25,691 nt of DNA from an uncultured Planctomycetaceae bacterium (GTDB taxonomy: Bacteria > Planctomycetota > UBA1135 > GCA-002686595), in NCBI GenBank assembly GCA_964496575.1, contig CAZCAC010000127.1, forward strand, positions 1 to 25,691, given 5' to 3'. The translations under genes were made by a program, and so were the position numbers. Positions 1 through 14,547 of the stretch are shown piece after piece. The notes below the pieces were generated by a model. That model was given only the letters and a program-made list of their open reading frames with translations, did not search any database and was not told where the DNA came from. Within the stretch, counting starts at the first letter, position 1; every line of letters begins with the position of its first letter.

Positions 1-813
1 CGCCATCTCCCGTGGTCGCTGATCGGGAGTGAGCTCGTCCACGGCCACCCGCGGGCCAACCTCGGGGGCGGGCGGTTCTTCCCCCGCCCCGCCATCTAGC
101 TGCACCAGTGCCGGTTGAGTCACCGCTTCGGTCGCGACCGGCGCGCCCCACTGCTTCACGACCGCCCCGACCCCGAACCACACCAGAACAGAGAGCGCGG
201 CGAGGATCACTGACGCCAGCATGACCTTGCCCACGGCCAGCCCTGCCAGCACCTTGGCCGTGCCGCCGACCTGAGCCCCCTCCCAGCTTGCCAGCGGGAG
301 CAGTGCCTGGATCCACTCCTGCCGACCGTCCGATTCGTCGTCGAGCCGAGACCTCAACCGCTCCAGCGCTCGCCGCAATCGCGTGCGAACCGTGGCTGCG
401 GGCACCTCCATCCGCATCGCGATGTCCGTAGCGGTGAGACCTTCGTAGTATCGGAGCAGCACCGTGTCGCGATAGGGCTGCTCGAGCTCCAGGACCTTGC
501 TGGCGAGAGATCGTTCCTGCTCGACTCGTTGGGCCACGTCCAGAGCCGAGGGTTCGCTCTCCTCAGCAACTTCCGGGACCCGACGAGTCTCGCGACGCCA
601 GCGCAGACCCGCCTGTCGCCGCACCACGGTCGCAAGCCACGGTCTCGCCGGTCGATTCGAGTTGGGAGGATTGCGCAACGCGGCGACCCAGGTGTCCTGC
701 ACCAGATCGTCCGCAGCCGCGGCGTCCGCGACCAGGCTCCGAGCGAGCGCGGTCAGCCACGCGGAATGCTGCAGAAGACGGTCGAGACTGGCCTGTCCGG
801 GGTGATCGCTCAT
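1..813 (-). CDS. ECF (sigma-70 family, group 4) RNA polymerase sigma factor, fused in frame to a C-terminal extension with one predicted transmembrane helix. 3' end lies beyond the window start (partial).
   Basis: ATG at 813-811 (minus). The hand translation is stop-free to position 1: MSDHPGQASLDRLLQHSAWLTALARSLVADAAAADDLVQDTWVAALRNPP (region 2), then LLRYYEGLTATDIAMRMEVPAATVRTRLRRALERLRSRL (region 4 HTH), then DDESDGRQEWIQALLPLASWEGAQVGGTAKVLAGLAVGKVMLASVILAALSVLVWFGVGAVVKQWG... with no stop. It is absent from the ORF track because there is no in-window stop codon. Confidence 0.8.
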   Translation of the reverse strand, partial: MSDHPGQASLDRLLQHSAWLTALARSLVADAAAADDLVQDTWVAALRNPPNSNRPARPWLATVVRRQAGLRWRRETRRVPEVAEESEPSALDVAQRVEQERSLASKVLELEQPYRDTVLLRYYEGLTATDIAMRMEVPAATVRTRLRRALERLRSRLDDESDGRQEWIQALLPLASWEGAQVGGTAKVLAGLAVGKVMLASVILAALSVLVWFGVGAVVKQWGAPVATEAVTQPALVQLDGGAGEEPPAPEVGPRVAVDELTPDQRPREMA

Positions 814-869
814 CGGTCAATGACCAGCTTGCACTGGTCCCCCGGAGTGTTTCGCAAATCCCGGGATTC

Positions 870-1658
870 TCAGCCCTTCAGCTTCCTGACCAACGATCCC
901 CACACCCCTCGCGGCAGCGCGCGACCGAGGGTCTTCAGCGGCCAGGCCAGCTGCCACGGAAAGGCGAGCACCGGTGAACCCCGCTCCAGCGCGACCACGC
1001 ACCGTCTGGCCGCGTCCTCGACCTCCACCAGGAATGGCATCGGGTGCTCGATCGAGTCGGTCATCGGGGTGCGCACCCAGCCCGGCTGGATGTCGACCAC
1101 CTTCAGGCCACTCTCGTGGAGCTCGATCTGCAACGACTCGAGAAGGGAAGAGAGGGCCGCCTTCGAAGCGGGGTACGCACCGCCTCTCGGCATCGCGCGA
1201 ACGCCGGCGAGGCTGGAGACGCCCGCCAGGGTGCCGGTGCCGCGCGGGAGCATGGCGTGCATCCCCTCGATCAGCGTGACCATCGCGCCCTTGACGTTGA
1301 CGTCGATCACCTCCTCGACGTCCTCCCGGGTCATCTCCCCCGCCGGCGCCGAGCGGCCGATACCGGCGTTGGCGATGACGAGGTCGAAGCCGCCCACCAT
1401 CGCGTCCCAGTGTGCGATCGAATCGGCGATCGCTTTCGGGTCACGAACGTCGAGCTCCGCGGCGTCGGCGCGGCCGCCGCCTCGCGCGATCCCCGCCGCG
1501 AGCTCCTCCAGCAGCTCGAGACGTCGCGCCGTGACGACCACCCGCGTGCCGCGACGGGCCAACTCGAGGGCGATCGCGAGGCCGATGCCGCTCGAAGCGC
1601 CGGTGATGAAGGCGTTGCGGAAGAGCACGAGGTTCAGTCCGCCCCGACGCGAGTGCAC
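870..1658 (-). CDS. Short-chain dehydrogenase/reductase (SDR) family oxidoreductase. The start is uncertain: GTG at 1658 or GTG at 1628. The track ORF 870..2177 over-extends it.
   Basis: Rossmann motif FITGASSGIGLAIALELARRG near the N-terminus. NAG and YPASK (YxxxK) catalytic motifs are present. The track ORF's N-terminal ~170 aa is Arg/Gly-rich and overlaps punA in another frame, so it is rejected. Confidence 0.8.
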   Translation of the reverse strand: MHSRRGGLNLVLFRNAFITGASSGIGLAIALELARRGTRVVVTARRLELLEELAAGIARGGGRADAAELDVRDPKAIADSIAHWDAMVGGFDLVIANAGIGRSAPAGEMTREDVEEVIDVNVKGAMVTLIEGMHAMLPRGTGTLAGVSSLAGVRAMPRGGAYPASKAALSSLLESLQIELHESGLKVVDIQPGWVRTPMTDSIEHPMPFLVEVEDAARRCVVALERGSPVLAFPWQLAWPLKTLGRALPRGVWGSLVRKLKG

Positions 1659-2455
1659 ACCGCCGTGAGCAGCGCGCAGAAGCGTTCGGCGAGAACCCGC
1701 CCCGCCTCGACCACCTCGTCGTGCGAGAGCGGCTCGCCGGTGATTCCCGCCGCCCGGTTGGTGATGGCGGAGATCGCCGCCACCCTCATCCCCGCCGCGT
1801 GCGCGGCGCTCGCTTCGGCAACGGTGCTCATACCCACCGCCTGCGCGCCGCCCCAGCGCAGCATCGAGATCTCGGCCGGCGTCTCGTAGGTCGGCCCCAG
1901 GAGCCCCGCGTAGGTGCCATGATGCAGCTCGATCCCCTTCTCCTCCGTCGCTCCGTCCACTATCGTGCCGAGCTCGCGGTCGTACGGGTTGCCGAGTCCC
2001 TCTTCCCCCTGCATCAGTGGCGTCCGCCCCTGCAGGTTCAGGTGATCGATGATGCGCATCAGCGCCGGGATCTCCCAGTCCGCCTCCAGGCCGCCCGCGG
2101 CGTTGGTCAGGAAGAGCATGCCGATCCCCAGTCGACCGAACGCTCGCACGCAACGCGTCACCTCGCTCGGCCGCCAACCCTCGTAGAGGTGTACACGCCC
2201 CTGCTGGACCACCACCGGCACGCCCTCGACCTTCCCCAGCACCAGCTGCCCCGCGTGGCCGGGAACGGCGCTGGTCGGCATCGCGTCGAGCTCCTCGTAC
2301 GGAATCACTCTCTGGTCCGTCAGCGAATCGGCGAACCCGCCCAGGCCCGACCCGAGCACCAAGGCGATCCGCGCGCCACCGACCCCGTGGGATTCCAGGC
2401 TGCGGGTGAGGTCTTCCAGCGCCAGCGTGGCGTCGTCGATCTGCGGTGTCTTCAT
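1634..2455 (-). CDS. punA: Purine nucleoside phosphorylase, trimeric PNP-I family (inosine/guanosine type).
   Basis: 273 aa with the hallmark blocks of the trimeric PNP family: ALVLGSGLGGFADSL, VPGHAGQLVLG, VHLYEGW, FLTNAAGGL, GTYAGLLGPTYETPAE, AQAVGMSTVAEA and ITNRAAG. ATG at 2455, with GGAG about 9 nt upstream. Confidence 0.9.
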   Translation of the reverse strand: MKTPQIDDATLALEDLTRSLESHGVGGARIALVLGSGLGGFADSLTDQRVIPYEELDAMPTSAVPGHAGQLVLGKVEGVPVVVQQGRVHLYEGWRPSEVTRCVRAFGRLGIGMLFLTNAAGGLEADWEIPALMRIIDHLNLQGRTPLMQGEEGLGNPYDRELGTIVDGATEEKGIELHHGTYAGLLGPTYETPAEISMLRWGGAQAVGMSTVAEASAAHAAGMRVAAISAITNRAAGITGEPLSHDEVVEAGRVLAERFCALLTAVCTRVGAD

Positions 2456-2474
2456 GCGTGTTACTCCGACCGGA

Positions 2475-3785
2475 CTACAGGAAGATACCCGCGACCGTCG
2501 CGGTCATCCAAGAGGCGAAGGCTCCGCCGACCATCGCGCGCAGCGCCAGGCGGGAGATGTCGGTCTTGCGGTCGGGCGCCAGGGGCGTGATCCCGCCGAG
2601 CTGGATGCCGATCGAGGCGAAGTTGGCGAAGCCGCACAGCGCGTAGGCGGCCATCGCGGCGGTGCGCGGGTGCTCGAAGGCCATCTTCACGCCTTCTTCG
2701 TTGCCCAGCATCCCCTGGAGCTGGCCGAAGGCGACCAGCTCGTTGACGGCGATCTTGGTCCCGAGGAGCGAGCCGAAGAGCTTGCAGTCGTGCCACCCAT
2801 CGACGCCCATCAACCAGGCGATCGGCGCGAAGATCCGCCCGAAGATCCAGTTGAGGCTGAGCGTCTCTTCCATCCCCACCCACTCGCCCAGCGCTTCCAG
2901 CGGCCAGTTGACCAGGTTCACCAGCGCGATGAAGGCGATCAGCATGGCAATCACGTTGAGCCACAGCTTGAGCCCGTCAGTGGTTCCGTTGGCCGCGGCC
3001 TCGATCAAGTTGCCCGCGCTGCGGTTCAGGCGCAGCTTCACCTGGCCCGAGGTCTCCGCCACTTCCGTCTCGGGAAGCATGATCTTCGCCACCACGAACG
3101 CCGCCGGCGCGGACATCACCGAGGCGGTGAGCAGGTGCGCCCCGTACTCCTCGCCGATGAAGCCCATGTAGACGGCGAGCACCGACCCGGCGATCGTCGC
3201 GAACCCGCCGGTCATCAGCGCGTTCAGCTCTGAGCTGGTCATCTTGGCGAGATACGGCTTGACCACCAGCGGCGCTTCGGTCTGGCCGACGAAGACGTTG
3301 GCGGCCATCGACATCGATTCCGCGCCCGACACGCGCATCGCCCACGACATCACCTTGGCCATGCACCACACCAGGAACTGCATCACGCCCAGGTGGTAGA
3401 GCACGCCCATCAGCGCACTGAAGAAGATGATCGCGACCAGGCCGGTGCCGGCGAAGGAGAAGATGAAGGCGCTGCCAGGGCCGAGGGTTTCCGCGACGCC
3501 TTCTCGCTCGATCATCAGGTCCTTCAGGACGTCTTGCTTGGCCAGGACGCCGAAGACCATCTCGGCGCCGGGAGCGGCCATCGAGATCACCTTGGTGACT
3601 ATTCCCGCCGCCCAGCCGAAGATCTCGTGGCCGATGCTCGTGGATAGAAAGATCCAGGCGAGCAAGAGCTGCAGCCCCAGTCCTCCGAAGATCACGCGCC
3701 AGGGCATCCGCCCCTTGTGCGAGGAGAGGAGCCAGGACACTCCGCAGAAGAAAGTGAGGCCGATCAGGCCGTGGACGAACTGCAA
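2475..3785 (-). CDS. nupC: Concentrative nucleoside transporter, NupC/CNT family.
   Basis: 436 aa polytopic membrane protein with CNT-family conserved blocks (GxxFxFG, MSxxxxEAPLVV-like region, C-terminal GFANFASIGIQLGG). TTG start at 3785-3783. It lies 19 nt upstream of punA on the same strand. Confidence 0.88.
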   Translation of the reverse strand: MQFVHGLIGLTFFCGVSWLLSSHKGRMPWRVIFGGLGLQLLLAWIFLSTSIGHEIFGWAAGIVTKVISMAAPGAEMVFGVLAKQDVLKDLMIEREGVAETLGPGSAFIFSFAGTGLVAIIFFSALMGVLYHLGVMQFLVWCMAKVMSWAMRVSGAESMSMAANVFVGQTEAPLVVKPYLAKMTSSELNALMTGGFATIAGSVLAVYMGFIGEEYGAHLLTASVMSAPAAFVVAKIMLPETEVAETSGQVKLRLNRSAGNLIEAAANGTTDGLKLWLNVIAMLIAFIALVNLVNWPLEALGEWVGMEETLSLNWIFGRIFAPIAWLMGVDGWHDCKLFGSLLGTKIAVNELVAFGQLQGMLGNEEGVKMAFEHPRTAAMAAYALCGFANFASIGIQLGGITPLAPDRKTDISRLALRAMVGGAFASWMTATVAGIFL

Positions 3786-4005
3786 GGGGAACCTCGGGCT
3801 GGAGACGGGGGCCTATGGAACCGTGGGGGTCGCGCTCGCGCAAGGATCAGGGGACTCACCCCGAGGCGATCCTCGTTCTCGATCGCTGAGGCGAGGCGCA
3901 AGGTCCCGCTCCGGGCCGCGAAACGGCACGGCGGAGGCCGCTGTGCGGAAGCTGCGTCTTTTCGTTGTCCATTCGAGTGCCCGGGGGTATCAGGGAGTCG
4001 GACTC

Positions 4006-5555
4006 ATGAGGCCTCGTCTCACAACCGCGCTCGCCCTCGTCGCCGGAATCGCGCTGGCGATCTGGTGGCTCGTGGCCGTCGCCTGGACGATGCGAGCGAA
4101 CAGGGACCGAGCAGCCTGTCTCCCGAGGAGTCGACGGCCGAGGGGAGCTCTCACCCCGCGGCCCTTCCTCCCCCGCCGGCGACCAGCGACGAGGCACGCC
4201 GATCCGGGGAACGGGAAGACGTGAAGCCCCGGAGCGATGGCGGCGTGACCGGGCGTGGCTCGGAGCTTCCGCGCGTCCCCGACGACTCCATCTGGATCGA
4301 CTGCGAGCTTCTCGCGCCCGGCCAGGTGCCAGCGGACGAGGAGTGCATCGTCGAAGCAGAAGGGGAAATGTACTGGAGCAGCGGTCGGATTATCGAGGAC
4401 CGCTACACGATCGAGGTGGAAGTCGGGGTCCCCTTCCGCGTGGCTCTGGCCAGAGGAACCCGAGAGGCCAGGATCCGGCTGAACGCGCGGTATCACTATC
4501 TGAAAGCCCCCATCGAGATCGATCTCTCGGCGGTCAGAGCCAGTACGGTCGTGATCGAGCCCGAGCTCGGAGGCGTGATCCGAGGTCGGGTGCTGCTGCC
4601 AGGGTCGGCGAATCCTGTCGATGCCGGAAGGGTGGGGGCCACATCGTTGCCTCCACCCGGACACCCCGTCAGGGATTTCGACCTCGACTTTCATGCACCG
4701 GCTGACATGGAGGCGGAAGGGAGCTTCGAGCTGCGCGGACGGGTTCACACCGGTGGGGAGCCGCACGCGGGGTGGCTGGTGGGCTGCGAGAACGACAACG
4801 GCGAGCGAGCCGCCGCCCACTGTGACGACGCCGGGGGATTCGTGATGAATCTAGGATCCCCCGGGCCGTTCCTCTTCAGCTTCTTTCCCAGTGGCCAGGC
4901 CCTCGGCTCCTTGCAGACCCTCCGGGTCGGTCGGGACATCCCGGACCGAGACGTGGTGGAACTGGACTTCGATCTTCCGGCGGGTTGCCTCGCCGGTCGG
5001 GTTCGCCTTCCGGGAGGCGCGCCAGCTCCCGGCTGCTAGCTGTTCCTCGACCTGAGCGCTGCCTGCGAGGGTTCGACCGCGTCGTACGAGTACACCGAGC
5101 TCTCGGTCACCGACTCCGAGGGCAGGTTCCGCTTCACCCCACTCCCGCCGGGCGGCTACGTGCTGCACGCCGGGGGAACCTCGATGGAGCCGGCGGAGAC
5201 CGACACCGAATCCTACGGCGTTCGTCGTCTCGGAGGGCTGCAGCTCGCCCTCGGAGAGGTGAAGGACGACCTGGTGATCGACCTGTCCCCGGCGGGATCG
5301 ATCGAGGGCCTCGTGCTGGCCCCGGACGGCTCGCCCGCGATCGGAGCTCTGGTGAGCCTCGTCGAGGACGACGACTCGTGGGTCGTCGTCTTCTTCTCTT
5401 CGCAAACGGATGCCGACGGCCGTTTCGAGTACCGGCACCTCACCCCGGGTCGAGTGGCGATCCACGCGCGGCAGGGTGACCTCACCAGCGAGGAGAGGGA
5501 GGTCCTCGTCGTCGAGGGCGACGCGGTCGAGGTGCAGCTTCAGCTGAATGAGTGA
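4006..5555 (+). pseudogene. Membrane-anchored protein with carboxypeptidase-regulatory-like (CarboxypepD_reg) beta-sandwich repeats. As sequenced it is disrupted by an apparent 1-nt frameshift near 4086 and an in-frame TAG at 5037-5039. Alternative reading: a 72-aa TM ORF 4006..4224 GTGA-coupled to a signal-less CDS starting at GTG 4221.
   Basis: ATG 4006 is preceded by GGGAG (3993-3997). It encodes the signal-anchor MRPRLTTALALVAGIALAIWWLVAVAW in frame 1; after 4086 frame 1 becomes an Arg-rich tail ending at TGA 4222-4224. Frame 0 reads through 4086..5036 as an S/P/E-rich linker followed by repeats (GRVLLPGSANPVDAG..., GRVHTGGEPHAG..., AGRVRLPGGAPAPGC). It hits TAG 5037-5039 and then continues in the same frame (5040..5555) with canonical repeats: DSEGRFRFTPLPPGGYVLHA and DADGRFEYRHLTPGRVAIHARQGDLTSEEREVLVVEGDAVEVQLQL. 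Confidence 0.45.
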
Positions 5556-5577
5556 TACGGAGCCAGGCTCCGTATCA
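5553..5577. terminator. Perfect 12-bp-arm inverted repeat (TGATACGGAGCC A GGCTCCGTATCA) between two convergent genes; candidate bidirectional terminator hairpin or protein-binding palindrome.
   Basis: The arms at 5553-5564 and 5566-5577 are exact reverse complements. The left arm begins with the TGA stop of the plus-strand gene (5553-5555). The right arm ends with TCA (5575-5577), which is the TGA stop of deoA on the minus strand. There is no U-tract on either side. Confidence 0.4.
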
Positions 5578-6873
5578 CAGTCGCTCGAGGACCAGGGGCC
5601 CGGGCTCGTAGTGGTCTTCGATCCGGATCGCCTCGGCGAGGAGCTCGCGGGCTCGATCAAGGCCTCGGCCGTGGCGGTGGTGAATGGTGCAGATCGACTC
5701 ACCCACCTCGACCCTCTCTCCCGCCGCCCGCCTGAAGCGGAAGCCGACGCCGACGTCGATCTCGTCTTCCAGGCGGACGCGACCGCCCCCGAGCTCGACC
5801 AGGGCGAAGCCGATTCGCTTCAGGTCGTGGAAGCGCAACACGCCGGCGCGATCGACAAACCACTCTTCGCGGTCGGTGCGCTCGGGATCGCCCTGCTCGT
5901 CGAACCAGCGCCCCGGCATCGCGCCCTGCTGCGCACAGATCCGCTCGAAGCACTCGTAAGCGCTGCCATCGTCGAGCGACGCGGCGATTCTCTTCTCGCC
6001 CGCCTCCACGTCGGCTGCGACTCCCGCCATCACCAGCATCTCTCCGGCGAGCGCGCAGCAAAGCTCGCGCAGGTCGGGCGGCCCCTCGCCGCGCAGGCAG
6101 TCGAGGCACTCGAGAATCTCCAGCGTGTGGCCCGCAGCCAGCCCGAGCGGCCGATCCATGGCCGTCTGCAGCACCCGCGCCTGAACGCCCATCCCTCGCG
6201 CGAGGTCGATCATCACCTCGCCCAGCTCCCGCCCCTTCGCGGCATCGGCGAGGAAGGCTCCGCTGCCGAACTTCACGTCGAGCACCAGGCTCTCCGCTCC
6301 CTCGGCGAGCTTCTTGGACATGATCGACGAGGCGATCAGCGGGATCGAAGGCACCAGCCCGGTCACGTCGCGCAGGGCGTAGAGCTTGCGATCGGCGGGC
6401 ACCAGGTCCTCGGTCTGCGCGCCGAGTGCCACGCCGACCTTCCGCAGCGCGTCGTCGAACTCCTGCTCGGAGAGATCGGTGCGGAAACCAGGGATCGACT
6501 CGAGCTTGTCGAGCGTCCCGCCGGTATGCCCGAGGCCGCGCCCCGAGATCATCGGCACCGCCACACCGCACGCGGCCACCGCCGGCGCGAGCGCGATCGA
6601 GACCTTGTCACCGATCCCGCCGGTCGAGTGCTTGTCCGAAGTCGGTCGCCCGAGCCCGTCGAAGCGCATCACCCGACCGGAGTGCAGCATCGCGTGCGTC
6701 CACGTCGCGAGCTCGGCGGGCTCCATCCCGTTGATGAAGATCGCCATCAGGAGCGCCGACGCCTGGTACTCGGGGATCTCGTCCCGGACGTACCCGTCGA
6801 TGAAGAAGTGGATCTCCTCCTCGCTCAGGGCGTGTCCGTCGCGCTTGGTGGAGAGAACGGTTCGGATGTCCAT
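5575..6873 (-). CDS. deoA: Thymidine / pyrimidine-nucleoside phosphorylase. The real start is ATG 6873 (MDIRTV...), not the track start at 6954.
   Basis: N-terminus MDIRTVLSTKRDGHALSEEEIHFFIDGYVRDEIPEYQASALLMAIFINGM. Glycosyltransferase-family-3 blocks are present: SDKHSTGGIGDKVS, GRGLGHTGGTLDKLESIPGF and GSGAFL. ATG 6873 lies 4 nt after the deoB stop (6878-6880), which indicates translational coupling. Confidence 0.9.
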   Translation of the reverse strand: MDIRTVLSTKRDGHALSEEEIHFFIDGYVRDEIPEYQASALLMAIFINGMEPAELATWTHAMLHSGRVMRFDGLGRPTSDKHSTGGIGDKVSIALAPAVAACGVAVPMISGRGLGHTGGTLDKLESIPGFRTDLSEQEFDDALRKVGVALGAQTEDLVPADRKLYALRDVTGLVPSIPLIASSIMSKKLAEGAESLVLDVKFGSGAFLADAAKGRELGEVMIDLARGMGVQARVLQTAMDRPLGLAAGHTLEILECLDCLRGEGPPDLRELCCALAGEMLVMAGVAADVEAGEKRIAASLDDGSAYECFERICAQQGAMPGRWFDEQGDPERTDREEWFVDRAGVLRFHDLKRIGFALVELGGGRVRLEDEIDVGVGFRFRRAAGERVEVGESICTIHHRHGRGLDRARELLAEAIRIEDHYEPGPLVLERL

Positions 6874-6877
6874 GGAT

Positions 6878-8062
6878 TCAGCTCGCGAGCTGCGACAGGA
6901 AGGACTCGCCCGCGCCGGTACCTTCGACGCCCAGCGCCTCGGCCACGGTCGCACCGATGTCGGCGAAGCTGGAGCGAGTCCCCAGATCGACTCCGCCCGC
7001 CACGTTCGGCCCGGTGGCGAGCACGGGCACGTACTCGCGCGTGTGATCGGTACCCGCCTCGTGCGTCGGGTCGTTGCCGTGGTCCGCGCAGAGGATCAGG
7101 AGGTCGTCGCGCTGTAGCTGCTGCTCGAAGACCCGCAAGTCCCCGTCGAACTCCTCGAGCGCCCGTCGATAGCCGACCGCGTCGCGGCGGTGGCCGTAGA
7201 GCATGTCGAAGTCGACGAGGTTGAGGAACAGGAGACCGCGGTCGAGGCTCCCGGCCAGCTTCGTCGCCTGCCGCATTCCGTCGCGGTTCCCTTCGGTGTG
7301 GTGATCCTCGGTCACCCCTCGGCCGGCGAAGATGTCGTGGATCTTGCCGACACCGACCACCGGCAGGCCCGCTCGCGCCAGTCGATCGAGCGTGGTGTCT
7401 CCGGGGGGCTCCAGCGAGTAATCGCGGCGGTTGTACGTCCGCTGGTAGTTCCCGGCCTCGCCGACGAAGGGCCTGGCGATCACTCGCGCCACGCCGAGGG
7501 GATCCAGGAGACGTCGTGCTTCGATGGAGATCTCGAATAGTCGCTCGAGGCCGAAGTGCTCCTCGTGCGCCGCGATCTGGAAGGCGCTGTCCGCGCTGGT
7601 GTAGACGATCGGCTTGCCCGTCCTGACGTGCTCCTCGCCGAGCTCGGCGATCACCGTCGTTCCCGACGCGGGCCGGTTGCAGAGGACCCCTTCGAGCCGG
7701 CCGCGCCGCACGAACGCTTCGATGATCTCCGGAGAGTAGCCGTCGGGGAAGGTGGGGAATGCCCCCTCCAGCGGGCACCCCATCATCTCCCAGTGACCGG
7801 TCGAGGTGTCCTTGCCGGGAGACTCCTCGGCGCAGCGCCCGAACGCCGCTTCCGGAGCGCTCGCCTTCGCGAGCTCCTCCACGCCGGTGACGTTGCCCAG
7901 CCCCAGCTCGATCAAGCGGGGTGTCTCCAGACCCCCGGTTGCGGTGATGATGTGATCGAGGGTGTGCGCCCCCGCATCACCGAAGCGCTCGGCATCGGGT
8001 AGGGCTCCGACTCCCAGCGAGTCGAGCACGAAGACGAAGACTCGCCGGAACTCAGAGGTCAT
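6878..8062 (-). CDS. deoB: Phosphopentomutase.
   Basis: 394 aa. The N-terminus RVFVFVLDSLGVGALPDAERFGDAGAHTLDHI and the metal-binding blocks CADHGNDPTH and TREYVPVL are typical of DeoB. ATG at 8062. Confidence 0.9.
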   Translation of the reverse strand: MTSEFRRVFVFVLDSLGVGALPDAERFGDAGAHTLDHIITATGGLETPRLIELGLGNVTGVEELAKASAPEAAFGRCAEESPGKDTSTGHWEMMGCPLEGAFPTFPDGYSPEIIEAFVRRGRLEGVLCNRPASGTTVIAELGEEHVRTGKPIVYTSADSAFQIAAHEEHFGLERLFEISIEARRLLDPLGVARVIARPFVGEAGNYQRTYNRRDYSLEPPGDTTLDRLARAGLPVVGVGKIHDIFAGRGVTEDHHTEGNRDGMRQATKLAGSLDRGLLFLNLVDFDMLYGHRRDAVGYRRALEEFDGDLRVFEQQLQRDDLLILCADHGNDPTHEAGTDHTREYVPVLATGPNVAGGVDLGTRSSFADIGATVAEALGVEGTGAGESFLSQLAS

Positions 8063-8450: not shown

Positions 8451-9614
8451 ATGCACCCCCTCAGGACCCTCCAGGCCGCCCTGCTCCTTCTCCTGGCCGC
8501 GAGCTGCACCAGCTGGCGTCCCGCCGAGGAGTACGAGGGGTGGACCCTGTACGTACAGTCCGGGGAGAGCGTCTCGATCGAGGAGTTCCACGGCGCGGTC
8601 CAGCCCGCTTTCGAGGCGGTCGAGGGCCTGCTCGGCCCCTTCAGCGACCCCGTCCGGGTTCACGCTTGGGATGGCGGGGTGCAGATGGACGCGGGGAATC
8701 ACGGGCACATCACTAGCGACGCCGACGAGGCGATCGAGGAGGTCCCCGGCATCGGCCCGGCGCGCGTGCGGGCCTTCCACACGCGGGGCTCCGGGGGACT
8801 CTTCGACCTCTCCGGGGTGTTCGTGGGCACCGCCGACACCGGCACCGCGGTGCACGAGCTGGTCCACGCCCACCTGGCGGAGGCGGGGGAGCGGTTGCCG
8901 CTGTGGTTCGAGGAGGGCTTCGCCATGATCCTCGGAGACGGCACCATGCGCGAGGGGCGGTGGATCGTCGACGGCCTCGCCTGCTGGCCGTGGCGGGAGC
9001 TGAGGTTGGCGGACCTGAGCGAGGAAGAGGTCGCCAAGTTGCTCACCCTTCGTTCCGGCGAGCCTCACTCGGTTCGCGACAACGTCCTGGTGCACTTCCT
9101 CGGCTGGGCGGTCGTCTTCGACCTGTACCGTGAGCTGGGAGTCCTCGACTGGCGTCGCTTGCTCGAGCGCTTCCAGGCCGCCTCGGATCCGGTGGCCGAG
9201 GCGCGCCGCCGTCTGCGCCGGACGCTGGACGAGGCCACGCCCGTCGGGTGGCTGGAGGAGCGGCTGGAGAGCGAGGACGTCGCGGTGCGGCTCGCCGCCG
9301 CGCGCGGGACCTGGAAGCTCCACTCCCTCGAGGTCCTCTGGCTCACCCTCGCGGCGATCCCGGGCGAGACCGACATCGAGGTCCGCGCGAGCCTGGCGGT
9401 CAACGCGCTGGCCGCCGCGGGGCAGGTCGAACACGGTCGGCGCACGCAACGACGACTCTGGCGGACGCTCTTGCCCGTGCTGCGCGAAGCCGAGCTGCCG
9501 GGGCCCGGCGAGACCTCCGCCTTGCGCACGCTCTACCGCGCGTATCGCTTCGGCAGCGAGCGCTACGACACGCAGGCGGCGCTGGAGCGGTTGGAGCGAT
9601 TCTGGGAGGAGTGA
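8451..9614 (+). CDS. Predicted lipoprotein zinc metallopeptidase (HExxH) with an alpha-helical, HEAT/PBS-like C-terminal region. Alternative upstream starts are GTG 8376 and ATG 8400.
   Basis: From ATG 8451: MHPLRTLQAALLLLLAASC, a signal peptide with lipobox LAAS-C. HELVH at 8853-8867 is followed by EEGFAM, a candidate third zinc ligand. The C-terminus has repeated amphipathic motifs (VAVRLAAARGTW..., EVRASLAVNALAAAG). Codon composition is diverse, unlike the antisense ORF. Confidence 0.65.
   Translation: MHPLRTLQAALLLLLAASCTSWRPAEEYEGWTLYVQSGESVSIEEFHGAVQPAFEAVEGLLGPFSDPVRVHAWDGGVQMDAGNHGHITSDADEAIEEVPGIGPARVRAFHTRGSGGLFDLSGVFVGTADTGTAVHELVHAHLAEAGERLPLWFEEGFAMILGDGTMREGRWIVDGLACWPWRELRLADLSEEEVAKLLTLRSGEPHSVRDNVLVHFLGWAVVFDLYRELGVLDWRRLLERFQAASDPVAEARRRLRRTLDEATPVGWLEERLESEDVAVRLAAARGTWKLHSLEVLWLTLAAIPGETDIEVRASLAVNALAAAGQVEHGRRTQRRLWRTLLPVLREAELPGPGETSALRTLYRAYRFGSERYDTQAALERLERFWEE
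9571..9614 (+). repeat. Left copy of a ~44-bp imperfect direct repeat (the last 14 codons plus stop of the metallopeptidase gene).
   Basis: 9571-9614 cgcaggcggcgctggagcggttggagcgattctgggaggagtga matches 10442-10485 agcgggccgcactggagaggttggagcggttcccggaggagtga at 36 of 44 positions. The encoded peptides are DTQAALERLERFWEE* and DKRAALERLERFPEE*. Confidence 0.6.
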
Positions 9615-9661
9615 GGACGGGCCGGTGGCGAGGGAATTAGCGGATTGATCAACAACGGGCG

Positions 9662-10063
9662 ATGGAAGCACCGTGCGTCGACTCGGCCATCCGGTCATGC
9701 TACCGTTCCGGTCCGATGAGAGCCGTGACCAGACAGGATCCGATTCCCCTCGACGAGCTGCGCAGTCTGGCTGCAGGCCGATTTGGCGATCTGGTCAAGG
9801 CGGTTGTCGACCTCGAACGGAGGATTCTGCTCGTAGACGCGGAGTTGCACGCCGACCAAGAAGCCGAGCTTCTCGCCGGCGGCTCGCAACAGCAAGATCT
9901 GTGGGGGATCAATCTCTATCCAGATCTGCCGGAGGACGAATGGCTCGAATTCGACTCGATGATCAACCTCCGTCCCTCCTCTGGGAATCGGTCCCGTGGC
10001 GTCGACGATCTCGCGACGCGGGAGAGGATCACTGCTCTGGTGGGCGAGCTGGTGCGCCGATGA
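9662..10063 (+). CDS. Hypothetical small protein, cassette gene 1 (about 115-133 aa; the start may be ATG 9716).
   Basis: Stop-free frame 9662-10063 with diverse amino-acid usage (…LDELRSLAAGRFGDLVKAVVDLERRILLVDAELHADQEAELLAGGSQQQDLWGINLYPDLPEDEWLEFDSMINLRP…). The TGA stop (10061-10063) overlaps the ATG (10060-10062) of the next gene in an ATGA arrangement. No family assignment can be made from memory. Confidence 0.55.
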   Translation: MEAPCVDSAIRSCYRSGPMRAVTRQDPIPLDELRSLAAGRFGDLVKAVVDLERRILLVDAELHADQEAELLAGGSQQQDLWGINLYPDLPEDEWLEFDSMINLRPSSGNRSRGVDDLATRERITALVGELVRR

Positions 10064-10401
10064 CGGACCAGAAGCAGCGGGAGATGGCGGCTCGTCGCTG
10101 GTGGACACTCACGCTGGCCGAGCAACTCGGCAACATCGGAAGTGAAGTCAGCCGAGCCCTGAAATGGCGAGGACGCAACCCTCGGATTGCTCAGGGAGCG
10201 GTCGAGCGTGCGCTGGAGCTGATCGACTTCACGCTCGATGACACCCGCCACCGTTCTTCCGTGGCCCGCCTCCGCGAGATCTGCAGGGTCCGGGAGACGC
10301 TCCTCGACTTTCTGGTGGGTACTAACGAGTACCGTTCGACCGAGACTACGCTTCAGCGCTACTTCGATGCATTCGCCGTGGCCGCGGCTCGGCGACGGTG
10401 A
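10060..10401 (+). CDS. Hypothetical 113-aa all-alpha protein, cassette gene 2. It weakly resembles MazG-like / all-alpha NTP-pyrophosphohydrolase-type small proteins.
   Basis: MTDQKQREMAARRWWTLTLAEQLGNIGSEVSRALKWRGRNPRIAQGAVERALELIDFTLDD… The two blocks LAEQLGNIGSEV and AVERALELIDFTL resemble the paired E-rich helices of MazG/dCTPase-like folds. This is an unverified recollection. It is ATGA-coupled to the upstream gene. Confidence 0.5.
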   Translation: MTDQKQREMAARRWWTLTLAEQLGNIGSEVSRALKWRGRNPRIAQGAVERALELIDFTLDDTRHRSSVARLREICRVRETLLDFLVGTNEYRSTETTLQRYFDAFAVAAARRR

Positions 10402-10441
10402 CGATCCCCCATCTATCCCGTTTGATCCTCTGGGACCGACA

Positions 10442-10485
10442 AGCGGGCCGCACTGGAGAGGTTGGAGCGGTTCCCGGAGGAGTGA
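10442..10485 (+). repeat. Right copy of the direct repeat: an orphan 19-codon 3' gene fragment (SSGTDKRAALERLERFPEE*).
   Basis: See the left copy. The frame opens only at 10426, right after a TGA, so this is a remnant and not a gene. Confidence 0.6.
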
Positions 10486-13010: not shown

Positions 13011-13048
13011 GAGCGGCCTGCCCTCGGGGGTGGGCCGCTCTTCTTCAC
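13011..13048 (+). terminator. Rho-independent terminator for the transketolase-family gene.
   Basis: GAGCGGCC (13011-18), loop tgccctcgggggtg, GGCCGCTC (13033-40), then TTCTTCAC (13041-48). It starts 26 nt after the TAG at 12982-84. The T-tract overlaps the stop of the convergent gene at 13045. Confidence 0.55.
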
Positions 13049-13701
13049 GGTTGATACTCACGCAGGCGGTCGACGTGCGGCGCGAGGAGAGACTCGGCCT
13101 CGGCACGGTCCTCGAAACCCATGCCTCGAACTTCGACTCTCAGAATCTTCAGGTCAACGCGACATAGGAAAACGAATCTGACAGGCCTCTCTCCACGGTA
13201 GCCCACGGCGCATGCGGACTCATCGCCGAGCTCGAGTCCATCGAGCCTGCGCACCGTCAGTTGAGGCTTGTCCGGTAGGGTCCAGGCCGTGTCCTTCTCG
13301 AGCGAATCGCTTATCACGCTCCAGAGAATGGCGACCTTCCGCTCGTTTCCAAGGAATCGGCCCGTGTAAGCGTATACCTCCGACGAGATGGAGAATTCTT
13401 CCTCCCCGGTCCCGTCGTCATAGTAGCGGTAGTCCGGGTGTACGCTTCCCATGAGTGATGGTTGGCCATACCGGGTACACCACTCATGGGGATGCCGCCG
13501 CTCTCGGTCAGGGTCCAGATCCTCGATCGTGATCAACACGCCCCGATCGCGCGGCCGGACCTCCTGCGGGCTCCGATCCCCGTACAGCAGCGAGGGGCCA
13601 AACAGCACGCCGCCGATCGCCAGGCCCGCGAGCATCACCACTCCTGCCCCGACCCACCACTTCCAACTGAGGGCGCGGTTCCCCGCTCGCTTCCGTCTCA
13701 T
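13045..13701 (-). CDS. Hypothetical protein with an N-terminal signal-anchor (single TM); unknown function.
   Basis: ATG 13701, with AGGAG about 11 nt upstream. MRRKRAGNRALSWKWWVGAGVVMLAGLAIGGVLFG is a TM segment, followed by a non-repetitive, mixed-composition 180-aa domain. The gene lies 30 nt downstream of the QW-motif gene on the same strand. Confidence 0.6.
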   Translation of the reverse strand: MRRKRAGNRALSWKWWVGAGVVMLAGLAIGGVLFGPSLLYGDRSPQEVRPRDRGVLITIEDLDPDRERRHPHEWCTRYGQPSLMGSVHPDYRYYDDGTGEEEFSISSEVYAYTGRFLGNERKVAILWSVISDSLEKDTAWTLPDKPQLTVRRLDGLELGDESACAVGYRGERPVRFVFLCRVDLKILRVEVRGMGFEDRAEAESLLAPHVDRLREYQP

Positions 13702-13731
13702 GGTTCAGCTACTCCTGCTCTCCCGGGGAGA

Positions 13732-14547
13732 TCACCTTCCTCGATCCCCTGCGTACCTCCCGAGCAGACGGATATTCCTCACGAAAGTCCGCGGATCGAT
13801 GATACGACGGGTCGGATCGCCCTTCCCCCAGTAGCGCAGGGTCCCGTCCTCCAGCCGGGATCGCTCGTAGTACTCCAGCGCGCGAGGGATCGGCTCGAGA
13901 AAGCGCTCCTCGTCGTACACCTCGGCCGCGTAGAGCATCGTCTGGATGCACTCGCTGATCACGTCGTCGTTCAGGGTGTAATAGTCCCAATGCGCCTTGA
14001 TCCGCCGGTACTCGCCGTCCTCCCGGAGAGATGCGCGAAGCGAGGGGTCGCGACCAGTGTCCGGTGCGGGGCCGCGATAGACCTGCGCCCACGCCCCGTT
14101 TCGATGCTGCGCGGCGAGAAGGCTCTTCAGCGCCCGACGAGCCGCCTCTCCGACCTCTCGATCCTCGAACCCCGTCACCCGGTCGTATCTCACCAGGAAC
14201 CGAATGACCGACTGCGTTCGATCGTCGTCGAGGATGCTCAGGTCCCGCGCCTTCCGCACCGGCTCGCCATCGACGAGGTACGCCCGCCCGCGCCGTGCCT
14301 TCGGGTCGAAGTCGATCCGCTCGCACCAACCGCTGGAGTGGAGCTGCCCCTTCAGCAGCGCCCGGCTCGTCTCCCGCGCGGCCTCGAGGGCGGTGGGCTC
14401 CCCCGTCAGCTCGAAGACCTCGAGATAGCCGTCCCCGATGAAAGCGGTCCCCGGCGGCTCGACCCAGGCGGTGCGGTGGTCGAGCTTGCCCTCTCCCTCG
14501 CGTTTTTCGAGATCGGCGCTGTAGCGCCAAACGTACCCTCCCTCCAC
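13732..14547 (-). CDS. Hypothetical protein with two QW-type motifs (QxxxGxW), as found in prenyltransferase / squalene-cyclase-like alpha-alpha toroid repeats.
   Basis: GTG start at 14547; there is no upstream ATG/GTG/TTG before the in-frame stop at 14697-95. The motifs are LLKGQLHSSGW and LLAAQHRNGAW. No signal peptide. Composition is diverse (W, Y, F, K, I), unlike the antisense ORF 13462..14646. Confidence 0.55.
   Translation of the reverse strand: MEGGYVWRYSADLEKREGEGKLDHRTAWVEPPGTAFIGDGYLEVFELTGEPTALEAARETSRALLKGQLHSSGWCERIDFDPKARRGRAYLVDGEPVRKARDLSILDDDRTQSVIRFLVRYDRVTGFEDREVGEAARRALKSLLAAQHRNGAWAQVYRGPAPDTGRDPSLRASLREDGEYRRIKAHWDYYTLNDDVISECIQTMLYAAEVYDEERFLEPIPRALEYYERSRLEDGTLRYWGKGDPTRRIIDPRTFVRNIRLLGRYAGDRGR

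Follow-up and report, generated by a model that had tools for sequence, protein, structure and literature searches.

A horizontally moving two-gene cassette of DUF5674 and an undescribed helical-bundle protein, a possible toxin–antitoxin-type module

The gene pair and its insertion site

The 25,691-nucleotide (nt) stretch of DNA analyzed here (referred to as the window), taken from contig CAZCAC010000127.1 of an uncultured Planctomycetaceae bacterium, carries two small overlapping genes that together form a cassette of less than one kilobase. Both genes were confirmed as real open reading frames (ORFs) of the plus strand, at positions 9662/9716-10063 and 10060-10401. Gene 1 (9716-10063, plus strand) encodes an acidic α/β protein of 115 amino acids (aa) that belongs to the Pfam family DUF5674 (PF18924) and is proposed here as the toxin or enzyme of the pair. 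Gene 2 (10060-10401, plus strand) encodes a 113-aa helical-bundle protein of an undescribed family, proposed as the antidote or partner. The two genes share an ATGA start/stop overlap at 10060-10063 of the plus strand, a sequence feature that would couple their translation. Of the two possible starts of gene 1, the ATG at 9716 (115 aa) rather than that at 9662 (133 aa) is almost certainly the true one, because 115 aa dominates the lengths of the homologues and DNA homology between cassettes begins 23-64 nt 5′ of ATG 9716.

The cassette extends from 9615 to 10436 and lies at the 3′ end of a target gene, referred to as gene X (ORF at 8451-9614, plus strand), which remains intact and encodes a 387-aa hypothetical protein with a HELVH motif. 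The insertion is flanked by direct repeats of 49 nt that are 84% identical, so that the original prediction of a pair carried as the cargo of a repeat-flanked insertion is borne out. The left repeat (9566-9614, plus strand) comprises the final 49 nt of gene X, stop codon TGA included, and is the functional copy, with the conserved ...RFWEE* end that is also found in all relatives. The right repeat (10437-10485, plus strand) is a displaced and decaying gene X 3′ end, which encodes ...RFPEE* and has lost the conserved tryptophan.

An extended -10-like element, TGcTACCGTT, can be read from the sequence at 9698-9707 of the plus strand, 9 nt 5′ of the gene 1 ATG, and is the probable promoter of the cassette, which would yield a near-leaderless mRNA. 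Comparable elements recur in other genomes, whose loci are designated by L numbers: in many of them TG-n-TAC(G/C)GTT, or TAGAAT/TACAAT in other lineages, lies about 9-20 nt upstream of the DUF5674 start, and L001, L004, L015-L017, L019 and others are among the loci with such a -10-like motif at the corresponding place. A Shine-Dalgarno sequence is usually not obvious between this motif and the DUF5674 start; together with the closeness of the motif to the start, this suggests a leaderless or near-leaderless mRNA. A scan of the window for consensus sigma-70 promoters gave no match, and a terminator search of the window gave a single terminator-like match, which lies within gene 1 but on the minus strand and does not exceed chance expectation. 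No hairpins or inverted repeats were found in the cassette flanks, and no Rfam families or tRNA genes in the window.

Distribution and conservation of the pair

Relatives were collected by a genome scan seeded with gene 2 and using one genome per species, from which 80 loci were kept. Gene 2 relatives occur in at least 574 species genomes, all of them metagenome-assembled genomes (MAGs), across Acidobacteriota, Aegiribacteria, Eisenbacteria, Fermentibacteria, Planctomycetota, Omnitrophota, Elusimicrobia and Poribacteria, as well as in many members of the candidate phyla radiation (CPR, Patescibacteria) and in one Nanoarchaeota MAG. From Acidobacteriota to CPR and DPANN lineages, both proteins retain about 50% identity. 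The pair is thus a large two-gene module found in essentially only uncultivated lineages, including genome-reduced CPR and DPANN members.

Of the 80 loci, 66 have an intact DUF5674 gene as the immediate upstream neighbor of gene 2, and 5 more have a frameshifted, truncated or remnant copy. A 4-nt overlap of the form (A/G)TGA joins the two genes in 52 of the 64 intact pairs from other genomes; the overlap is conserved and not a product of chance, and the tightly coupled, ATGA-overlapping two-component module that had been proposed from the window alone holds in these loci as well. The association is also seen from the other side: all four look-ups seeded with DUF5674 returned a partner of 111-122 aa that matches no Pfam family and overlaps by 4 nt. 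DUF5674 and gene 2 are therefore an obligate unit, and DUF5674 can be annotated as the obligate partner of gene 2, which itself merits a family model of its own. Ten comparisons place both genes under purifying selection, with ratios of nonsynonymous to synonymous substitution rates (dN/dS) of 0.03-0.36, and because of these ratios both are judged from their sequences to be functional.

The surroundings of the pair vary. The 142 nearest neighbors fall into 122 Pfam families, each present at most three times and nearly all of them housekeeping (CorA, SecA, CcmF and others), in keeping with the earlier observation that the pair has no metabolic context. No conserved third gene accompanies the pair, the other large ORF clusters being alternative or antisense frames of the pair itself. 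The suggestion that the pair belongs to a defense island is not supported, as PADLOC returned no match and the neighbors are mostly housekeeping genes. At one locus (L119, 4407-6348) the cassette adjoins a HicA-toxin/helix-turn-helix antitoxin pair and an rve-family transposase, in what looks like a small, mobile patch rich in toxin–antitoxin (TA) genes.

Horizontal movement, empty sites and flanking repeats

Metagenomic relatives of this organism keep the order phosphopentomutase (minus strand) – gene X – transketolase without the pair, and the spacer between gene X and the transketolase gene, which measures 1,033 nt in the window, is only 68 nt in L096 and 148 nt in L098, both of which are empty. 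In a further relative (L097, 4668-6420), this spacer is occupied by another insertion with an ORF of 528 aa, which looks by eye like a membrane protein and is not accompanied by a gene X repeat, so the spacer seems to accept insertions repeatedly.

Between genomes, the DNA of the cassette is 83-95% identical while the flanking ORFs are unrelated. The cassettes of L024 and L036 are 94.9% identical over 704 nt, with homology running from -23, counted from the gene 1 start, to +1, counted from the gene 2 stop, and those of L004 and L019 are 89.9% identical from -34 to -1. Those of L037 and L043 are 95.5% identical from -64, and their alignment reaches +153, into a downstream 5S rRNA context that is common to both loci; with the exception of this couple, homology between cassettes stops at, or within a few bases of, the gene 2 stop codon. 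The transferred unit comprises 23-64 nt of upstream sequence and the two genes and ends at the gene 2 stop, and it is exactly this two-gene unit that moves horizontally. One copy of the cassette lies at the end of an IMG/VR contig, where its neighbors are genes for a phage-type tyrosine integrase and for an endolysin; it represents the sole case of an adjacent integrase. Gene 2 had no match among PLSDB plasmids and GenBank phages.

Locus-specific direct repeats flank the pair in at least eight loci. In L043 the repeat comprises 132 nt of 5S rRNA, and Rfam recognizes a full 5S copy to one side of the pair and a degraded one to the other; in L015 and L019 it derives from the 3′ end of transfer-messenger RNA (tmRNA), with lengths of 28 nt and 23 nt and three tandem fragments in L015; and in L020 it corresponds to roughly the last 105 nt of a gene for a GYD-domain protein. 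Repeats of 41, 25, 21 and 49 nt occur in L037, L078, L067 and the window, respectively. Such repeats are enriched around the pair (5 of 66 loci, compared with 2 of 374 shifted pseudo-elements from the same loci; Fisher p=0.001), and most loci are without them. Eight loci have a tRNA or tmRNA gene no more than 350 nt away from the pair; among the tRNA-adjacent ones, L065, L084, L085 and L025 show no downstream copy of a tRNA or tmRNA 3′ end.

Individual loci add further detail. L015 shows a sub-threshold tmRNA match (42.6 bits, with a gathering score of 47) at 3437-3581, followed by the cassette and by two more partial copies of the tmRNA 3′ end at 4354-4442 and about 4553-4573, an arrangement that suggests the integration of several elements in series; ARAGORN called no tmRNA at this locus. 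L043 contains three 5S rRNA matches within 4.4 kb (506-622, 3072-3181 and 4098-4214, minus strand), one of them degraded, with the cassette between the degraded and a full copy. In L004, where the cassette sits between enoyl-CoA hydratase and Dus genes and not at a tmRNA, a tmRNA-like 3′ fragment, GATTCCCGCCGCCTCCACC, is found at about 6381-6400, 12 nt past the gene 2 stop; because this fragment lies away from any tmRNA gene, it suggests that the cassette can carry an old copy of an attachment site along.

No integrase or recombinase lies between the repeats, which enclose only the two genes, and no recombinase family is enriched among the 142 neighbors. Two routes of integration are candidates, namely an integrase supplied in trans that acts at classical attachment (att) sites in gene 3′ ends, or recombination of the Campbell type by way of a conserved gene end that was captured earlier; either is consistent with repeats that vary in length and are target-specific. 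Alternatively, one or both proteins might themselves perform insertion and excision at gene 3′ ends, acting as a new and tiny recombinase. Nothing else lies between the repeats or in the moved unit, insertion takes place at 3′ ends, whether of tmRNA, of 5S rRNA or of protein genes, with a duplication that leaves the target intact, no integrase is enriched nearby, and the mildly basic gene 2 family might conceivably bind nucleic acid. We nevertheless consider this quite improbable, given that neither protein resembles a recombinase, transposase or nuclease fold, that repeat length (21-132 nt) and left boundary vary in a way unlike the fixed target duplications of a dedicated enzyme, that repeats are missing from most loci, that DUF5674 is often lost while gene 2 stays, and that one copy adjoins a conventional tyrosine integrase. 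A broader version, in which the cassette would be an autonomous minimal element whose two proteins form new integration/excision machinery for the 3′ ends of conserved genes (tmRNA, 5S rRNA, tRNA and protein genes), or in which a captured gene end serves as a portable homology arm, would explain both the movement of the exact two-gene unit and the target-specific repeats of variable length; it too appears improbable.

The insertion habit of the cassette resembles that of integrase-less, att-flanked islets (cis-mobilizable) and of islands that target tmRNA and tRNA genes, in that insertion takes place at gene 3′ ends, the target regains its 3′ end through a direct repeat, relatives show the empty site, and L015 holds tandem tmRNA fragments. 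It differs from them in its size of about 0.75-0.9 kb, its lack of an integrase, the presence of the same cargo at many targets and the range of its repeats. Integron gene cassettes that carry TA pairs offer another parallel, as compact, mobile two-gene cargo without a recombinase of its own; unlike these, the present cassette has no attC-like imperfect palindrome, does not form arrays, is flanked by copies of local targets and probably has its own promoter. The unit measures about 0.8 kb, is sharply bounded by a stop codon, lacks an integrase and yet recurs at 3′ ends, be they of tmRNA, of 5S rRNA or of protein genes; it gives an unusually clean picture of mobility and allows tests of how very small selfish cassettes cross phyla.

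The DUF5674 protein and its faint resemblance to PHPT1

The original prediction could assign no family to gene 1, an assessment that has to be revised: the protein matches Pfam DUF5674 (PF18924) with 103.9 bits against a cut-off of 27 (expect value E=5.9e-30), in an alignment that spans positions 4-109 of the 109 in the profile. The homologues number more than 7,900, and all 40 diverse ones examined match the same family. DUF5674 was the sole match of gene 1, and of these 40 homologues, in Pfam, NCBIfam, PADLOC and PHROGs, and no paper in the literature searched mentions DUF5674 or PF18924. The AlphaFold2 model of the protein, with a predicted local distance difference test score (pLDDT) of 88, adopts an α/β architecture in which loop 87-90 is of low confidence yet invariant in sequence. 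When compared against the PDB with Foldseek, this model had no match at E<1, and sequence and profile searches of PDB chains gave nothing meaningful for either protein of the pair.

Eleven positions of DUF5674 are invariant across phyla (F23, D32, H45, D47, W63, G64, S81, N84, P87, N91 and R94) and nine more are nearly so (K28, E49, N66, Y68, P69, E78, F79, D80 and S93), while A42 is conserved among close homologues. H45 opens the helix formed by residues 45-54 of the model. The family is acidic, with a median isoelectric point (pI) of 4.9.

The invariant AELHAD motif of DUF5674 matches the conserved AEYHAD of PHPT1, whose His53, within this motif, is the catalytic residue; in PHPT1, H53 is invariant and A54 and D55 are nearly so. 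PHPT1, the 14-kDa phosphohistidine phosphatase of the Janus/Ocnus family (PF05005), is also similar to DUF5674 in size and in the order of its secondary structure elements, and the two share AE[YL]HAD around the invariant histidine, a conserved lysine on the preceding strand and a later [Y/D]SM motif. In a greedy alignment, K28, G64 and S81 of DUF5674 are roughly colinear with K21, GGG and S94 of PHPT1, for which the hhalign probability is at most 0.8%. Against these similarities, there is no significant sequence or profile similarity: hhalign of DUF5674 with a 39-sequence PHPT1 alignment yields a probability of 0.8% and aligns only AELHADQ with AEYHADI. None of the 40 DUF5674 members matches Ocnus (PF05005). 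The R45, R78 and GGGR motifs of PHPT1 have no clear counterparts in DUF5674, whose FDSMINxRPxxGNRSRG loop is its own and unlike PHPT1. The resemblance is therefore faint, a lead rather than a finding.

This lead gives shape to a different account of the pair, as a useful enzyme that either consists of two subunits or is accompanied by a subunit for regulation or specificity, and that spread by horizontal transfer because it is beneficial, for instance a PHPT1-like phosphohistidine or phosphoramidate phosphatase with a helical partner. The very strong conservation with enzyme-like invariant residues in both proteins, the purifying selection on both genes, the housekeeping neighbors, and the colinear motif and residues just described are consistent with it. 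We regard it as the main rival reading, yet as unlikely: a PHPT1-like enzyme has only seven confidently aligned residues in its favor, no Foldseek match in the PDB and no PF05005 member among the 40 homologues, and an isolated, repeat-flanked insertion of 0.8 kb at unrelated sites would not be expected of a beneficial enzyme.

The gene 2 protein and the MazG comparison

The AlphaFold2 model of the gene 2 protein (pLDDT 93) is all-helical, with five long helices and one short one (residues 2-15, 19-36, 41-60, 62-66, 68-85 and 95-112), and contains both acidic blocks, as had been anticipated from the sequence. R32 and E73 are invariant in the family, and W14, Q22, N25, G27, E29, R50, L54, R76, E79 and Y101 are nearly invariant. 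The family is mildly basic (median pI 8.7). There are 672 close homologues, all annotated as "hypothetical", and 1,020 clusters at 50% identity. Gene 2 belongs to no family in Pfam, NCBIfam, PADLOC or PHROG, and 100 diverse members searched against Pfam matched no family consistently. Foldseek found no PDB structure at E<1 for the model; 105 matches had E<=10, and the best of the 50 listed was the chaperone FliS, with a template modeling (TM) score of 0.53 and E of about 1.

The acidic blocks had been compared with the paired metal-binding helices of MazG-like, all-α NTP pyrophosphohydrolases, which would make gene 2 a degenerate member of that group within a nucleotide-depletion or signaling defense module. 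Gene 2 shares with those enzymes the form of a small helical bundle in which two successive helices bear acidic residues, and by eye EQxGN...SEV in helix 2 and ELxD in helix 3 resemble the MazG motifs EExxE and EELGD. The family consensus, however, reads E21-Q22-x-G-N25...E29 and E53-x-x-D56, so that EExxE is changed to EQxGN and two metal-binding glutamates are replaced, and gene 2 has an additional conserved ExxRxRE helix that is absent from MazG. No profile or fold match was obtained: hhalign gave a probability of 0.17% against both E. coli MazG and a 14-domain MazG profile built from E. coli and phage sequences, no MazG-clan Pfam family was matched among 100 gene 2 members (E<=1), and no MazG protein occurred among the 50 Foldseek matches listed of the 105. 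With no PADLOC match and no defense-island context either, a MazG-like role for gene 2 is highly improbable; as a candidate, the MazG or nucleotide-depletion model is essentially refuted by the profile, family and fold searches.

Loss of DUF5674 from loci that retain gene 2

The two genes do not decay alike in the loci sampled, most of which were found through gene 2. Gene 2 is intact without any DUF5674 in L002/L003, L032, L070, L083 and L094, with only remnants of DUF5674 in L018 and L021, and with a frameshifted DUF5674 in L029, L069 and L090; in two further copies (P0301 and P0045), internal deletions have left fragments of DUF5674 that form an in-frame fusion with gene 2. All twelve family-conserved residues are kept in 10 of the 12 gene 2 copies whose DUF5674 partner is lost or broken.

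The persistence of gene 2 while DUF5674 decays is the decay path expected if DUF5674 were harmful and gene 2 protective. As the solo copies of gene 2 stay constrained, gene 2 also appears to have value alone. For a two-subunit enzyme, this constraint on solo copies is a further supporting point, and the repeated loss of one subunit is not expected.

A toxin–antitoxin-type interpretation of the cassette

We interpret the cassette as a new selfish module of the toxin–antitoxin type, acting in addiction or in abortive infection, in which DUF5674 would be a harmful enzyme and gene 2 its antidote; this reading is the best supported but tentative, and we assign it a probability of about 0.4. The cassette, composed of a short, probable promoter region, DUF5674 and its overlapping partner, was inserted horizontally at the 3′ end of gene X, duplicating at least the final 49 nt of that gene. 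In the proposed mechanism, expression would start from the promoter-like TGnTACCGTT, 9 nt 5′ of the gene 1 start, and owing to the ATGA overlap the antidote would be made whenever the toxin is. DUF5674, an acidic α/β protein with an enzyme-like set of invariant K, D, H, D, S, N and R residues, would exert the harmful activity, possibly as a His-dependent phosphohydrolase or transferase, and the mildly basic helical bundle encoded by gene 2 would bind and neutralize it.

The pair shares several features with type II TA systems of toxin-first order (higBA, hicAB and mqsRA type), namely two small, co-directional genes for proteins of about 110-115 aa, a stop/start overlap, a probable promoter of their own, a patchy distribution among lineages, variable context, horizontal transfer and the survival of one partner alone. 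The TA-like behavior that had been suggested for the window is thus seen in the variable context, in the horizontal transfer and in the asymmetric decay, the last in a sample drawn mostly from gene-2-seeded loci. The pair differs from type II TA systems in belonging to no known toxin or antitoxin superfamily, in having a partner without a detectable DNA-binding domain, and in its unusual conservation across phyla.

Several observations weigh against a TA-type module. Neither protein is similar to a known toxin, antitoxin or defense family in Pfam, NCBIfam, PADLOC or PHROG, no DNA-binding domain is recognizable in gene 2, and gene 2 is missing from the plasmid and phage collections mentioned above. 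The invariant polar residues of gene 2 have the look of an active or ligand-binding site, unlike a typical fast-evolving antitoxin, and both proteins are conserved across phyla far more than most TA pairs. Judged by the classical pattern, the order of an acidic upstream and a basic downstream protein would assign the role of toxin to gene 2. The decay cases come mostly from gene-2-seeded loci, which are blind to the loss of gene 2, the reciprocal sample comprises 4 lineages, and some of the DUF5674 "frameshifts" may be assembly errors.

Both protein families of this TA-like mobile module lack known relatives. Should the cassette prove to act in addiction or abortive infection, its toxin and its antidote would each contribute a fold unrelated to those known, and the toxin possibly a phosphatase-like chemistry, which is not known among toxins.

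Neighboring genes in the window

Sibling contigs also carry a called gene X of 387 aa, and the gene has no Pfam or NCBIfam family above noise. Besides its HExxH-like HELVH motif, it shows by eye an N-terminal segment resembling a signal or lipoprotein sequence; the label "peptidase" that this upstream gene had received reflects the HExxH motif only, with no Pfam family behind it. On the other side of the cassette, the assignment of the downstream gene to the transketolase family is upheld by a Transketolase_N domain. Farther upstream, at about 1-8062 of the window (1-6347 in L007), Pfam identifies a nucleoside-salvage cluster comprising a PNP_UDP_1 phosphorylase, a concentrative nucleoside transporter, a thymidine/pyrimidine-nucleoside phosphorylase and a phosphopentomutase.

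Downstream of the transketolase gene, at 13045-14547 on the minus strand, the window contains ORFs of 218 and 271 aa that are also present in L007-L009, L011 and L013. In L010, L012 and L014, the transketolase and MltA-like genes are separated by 213 nt without a called gene, and the two ORFs are apparently absent; they appear to represent a second presence/absence polymorphism in the same population.

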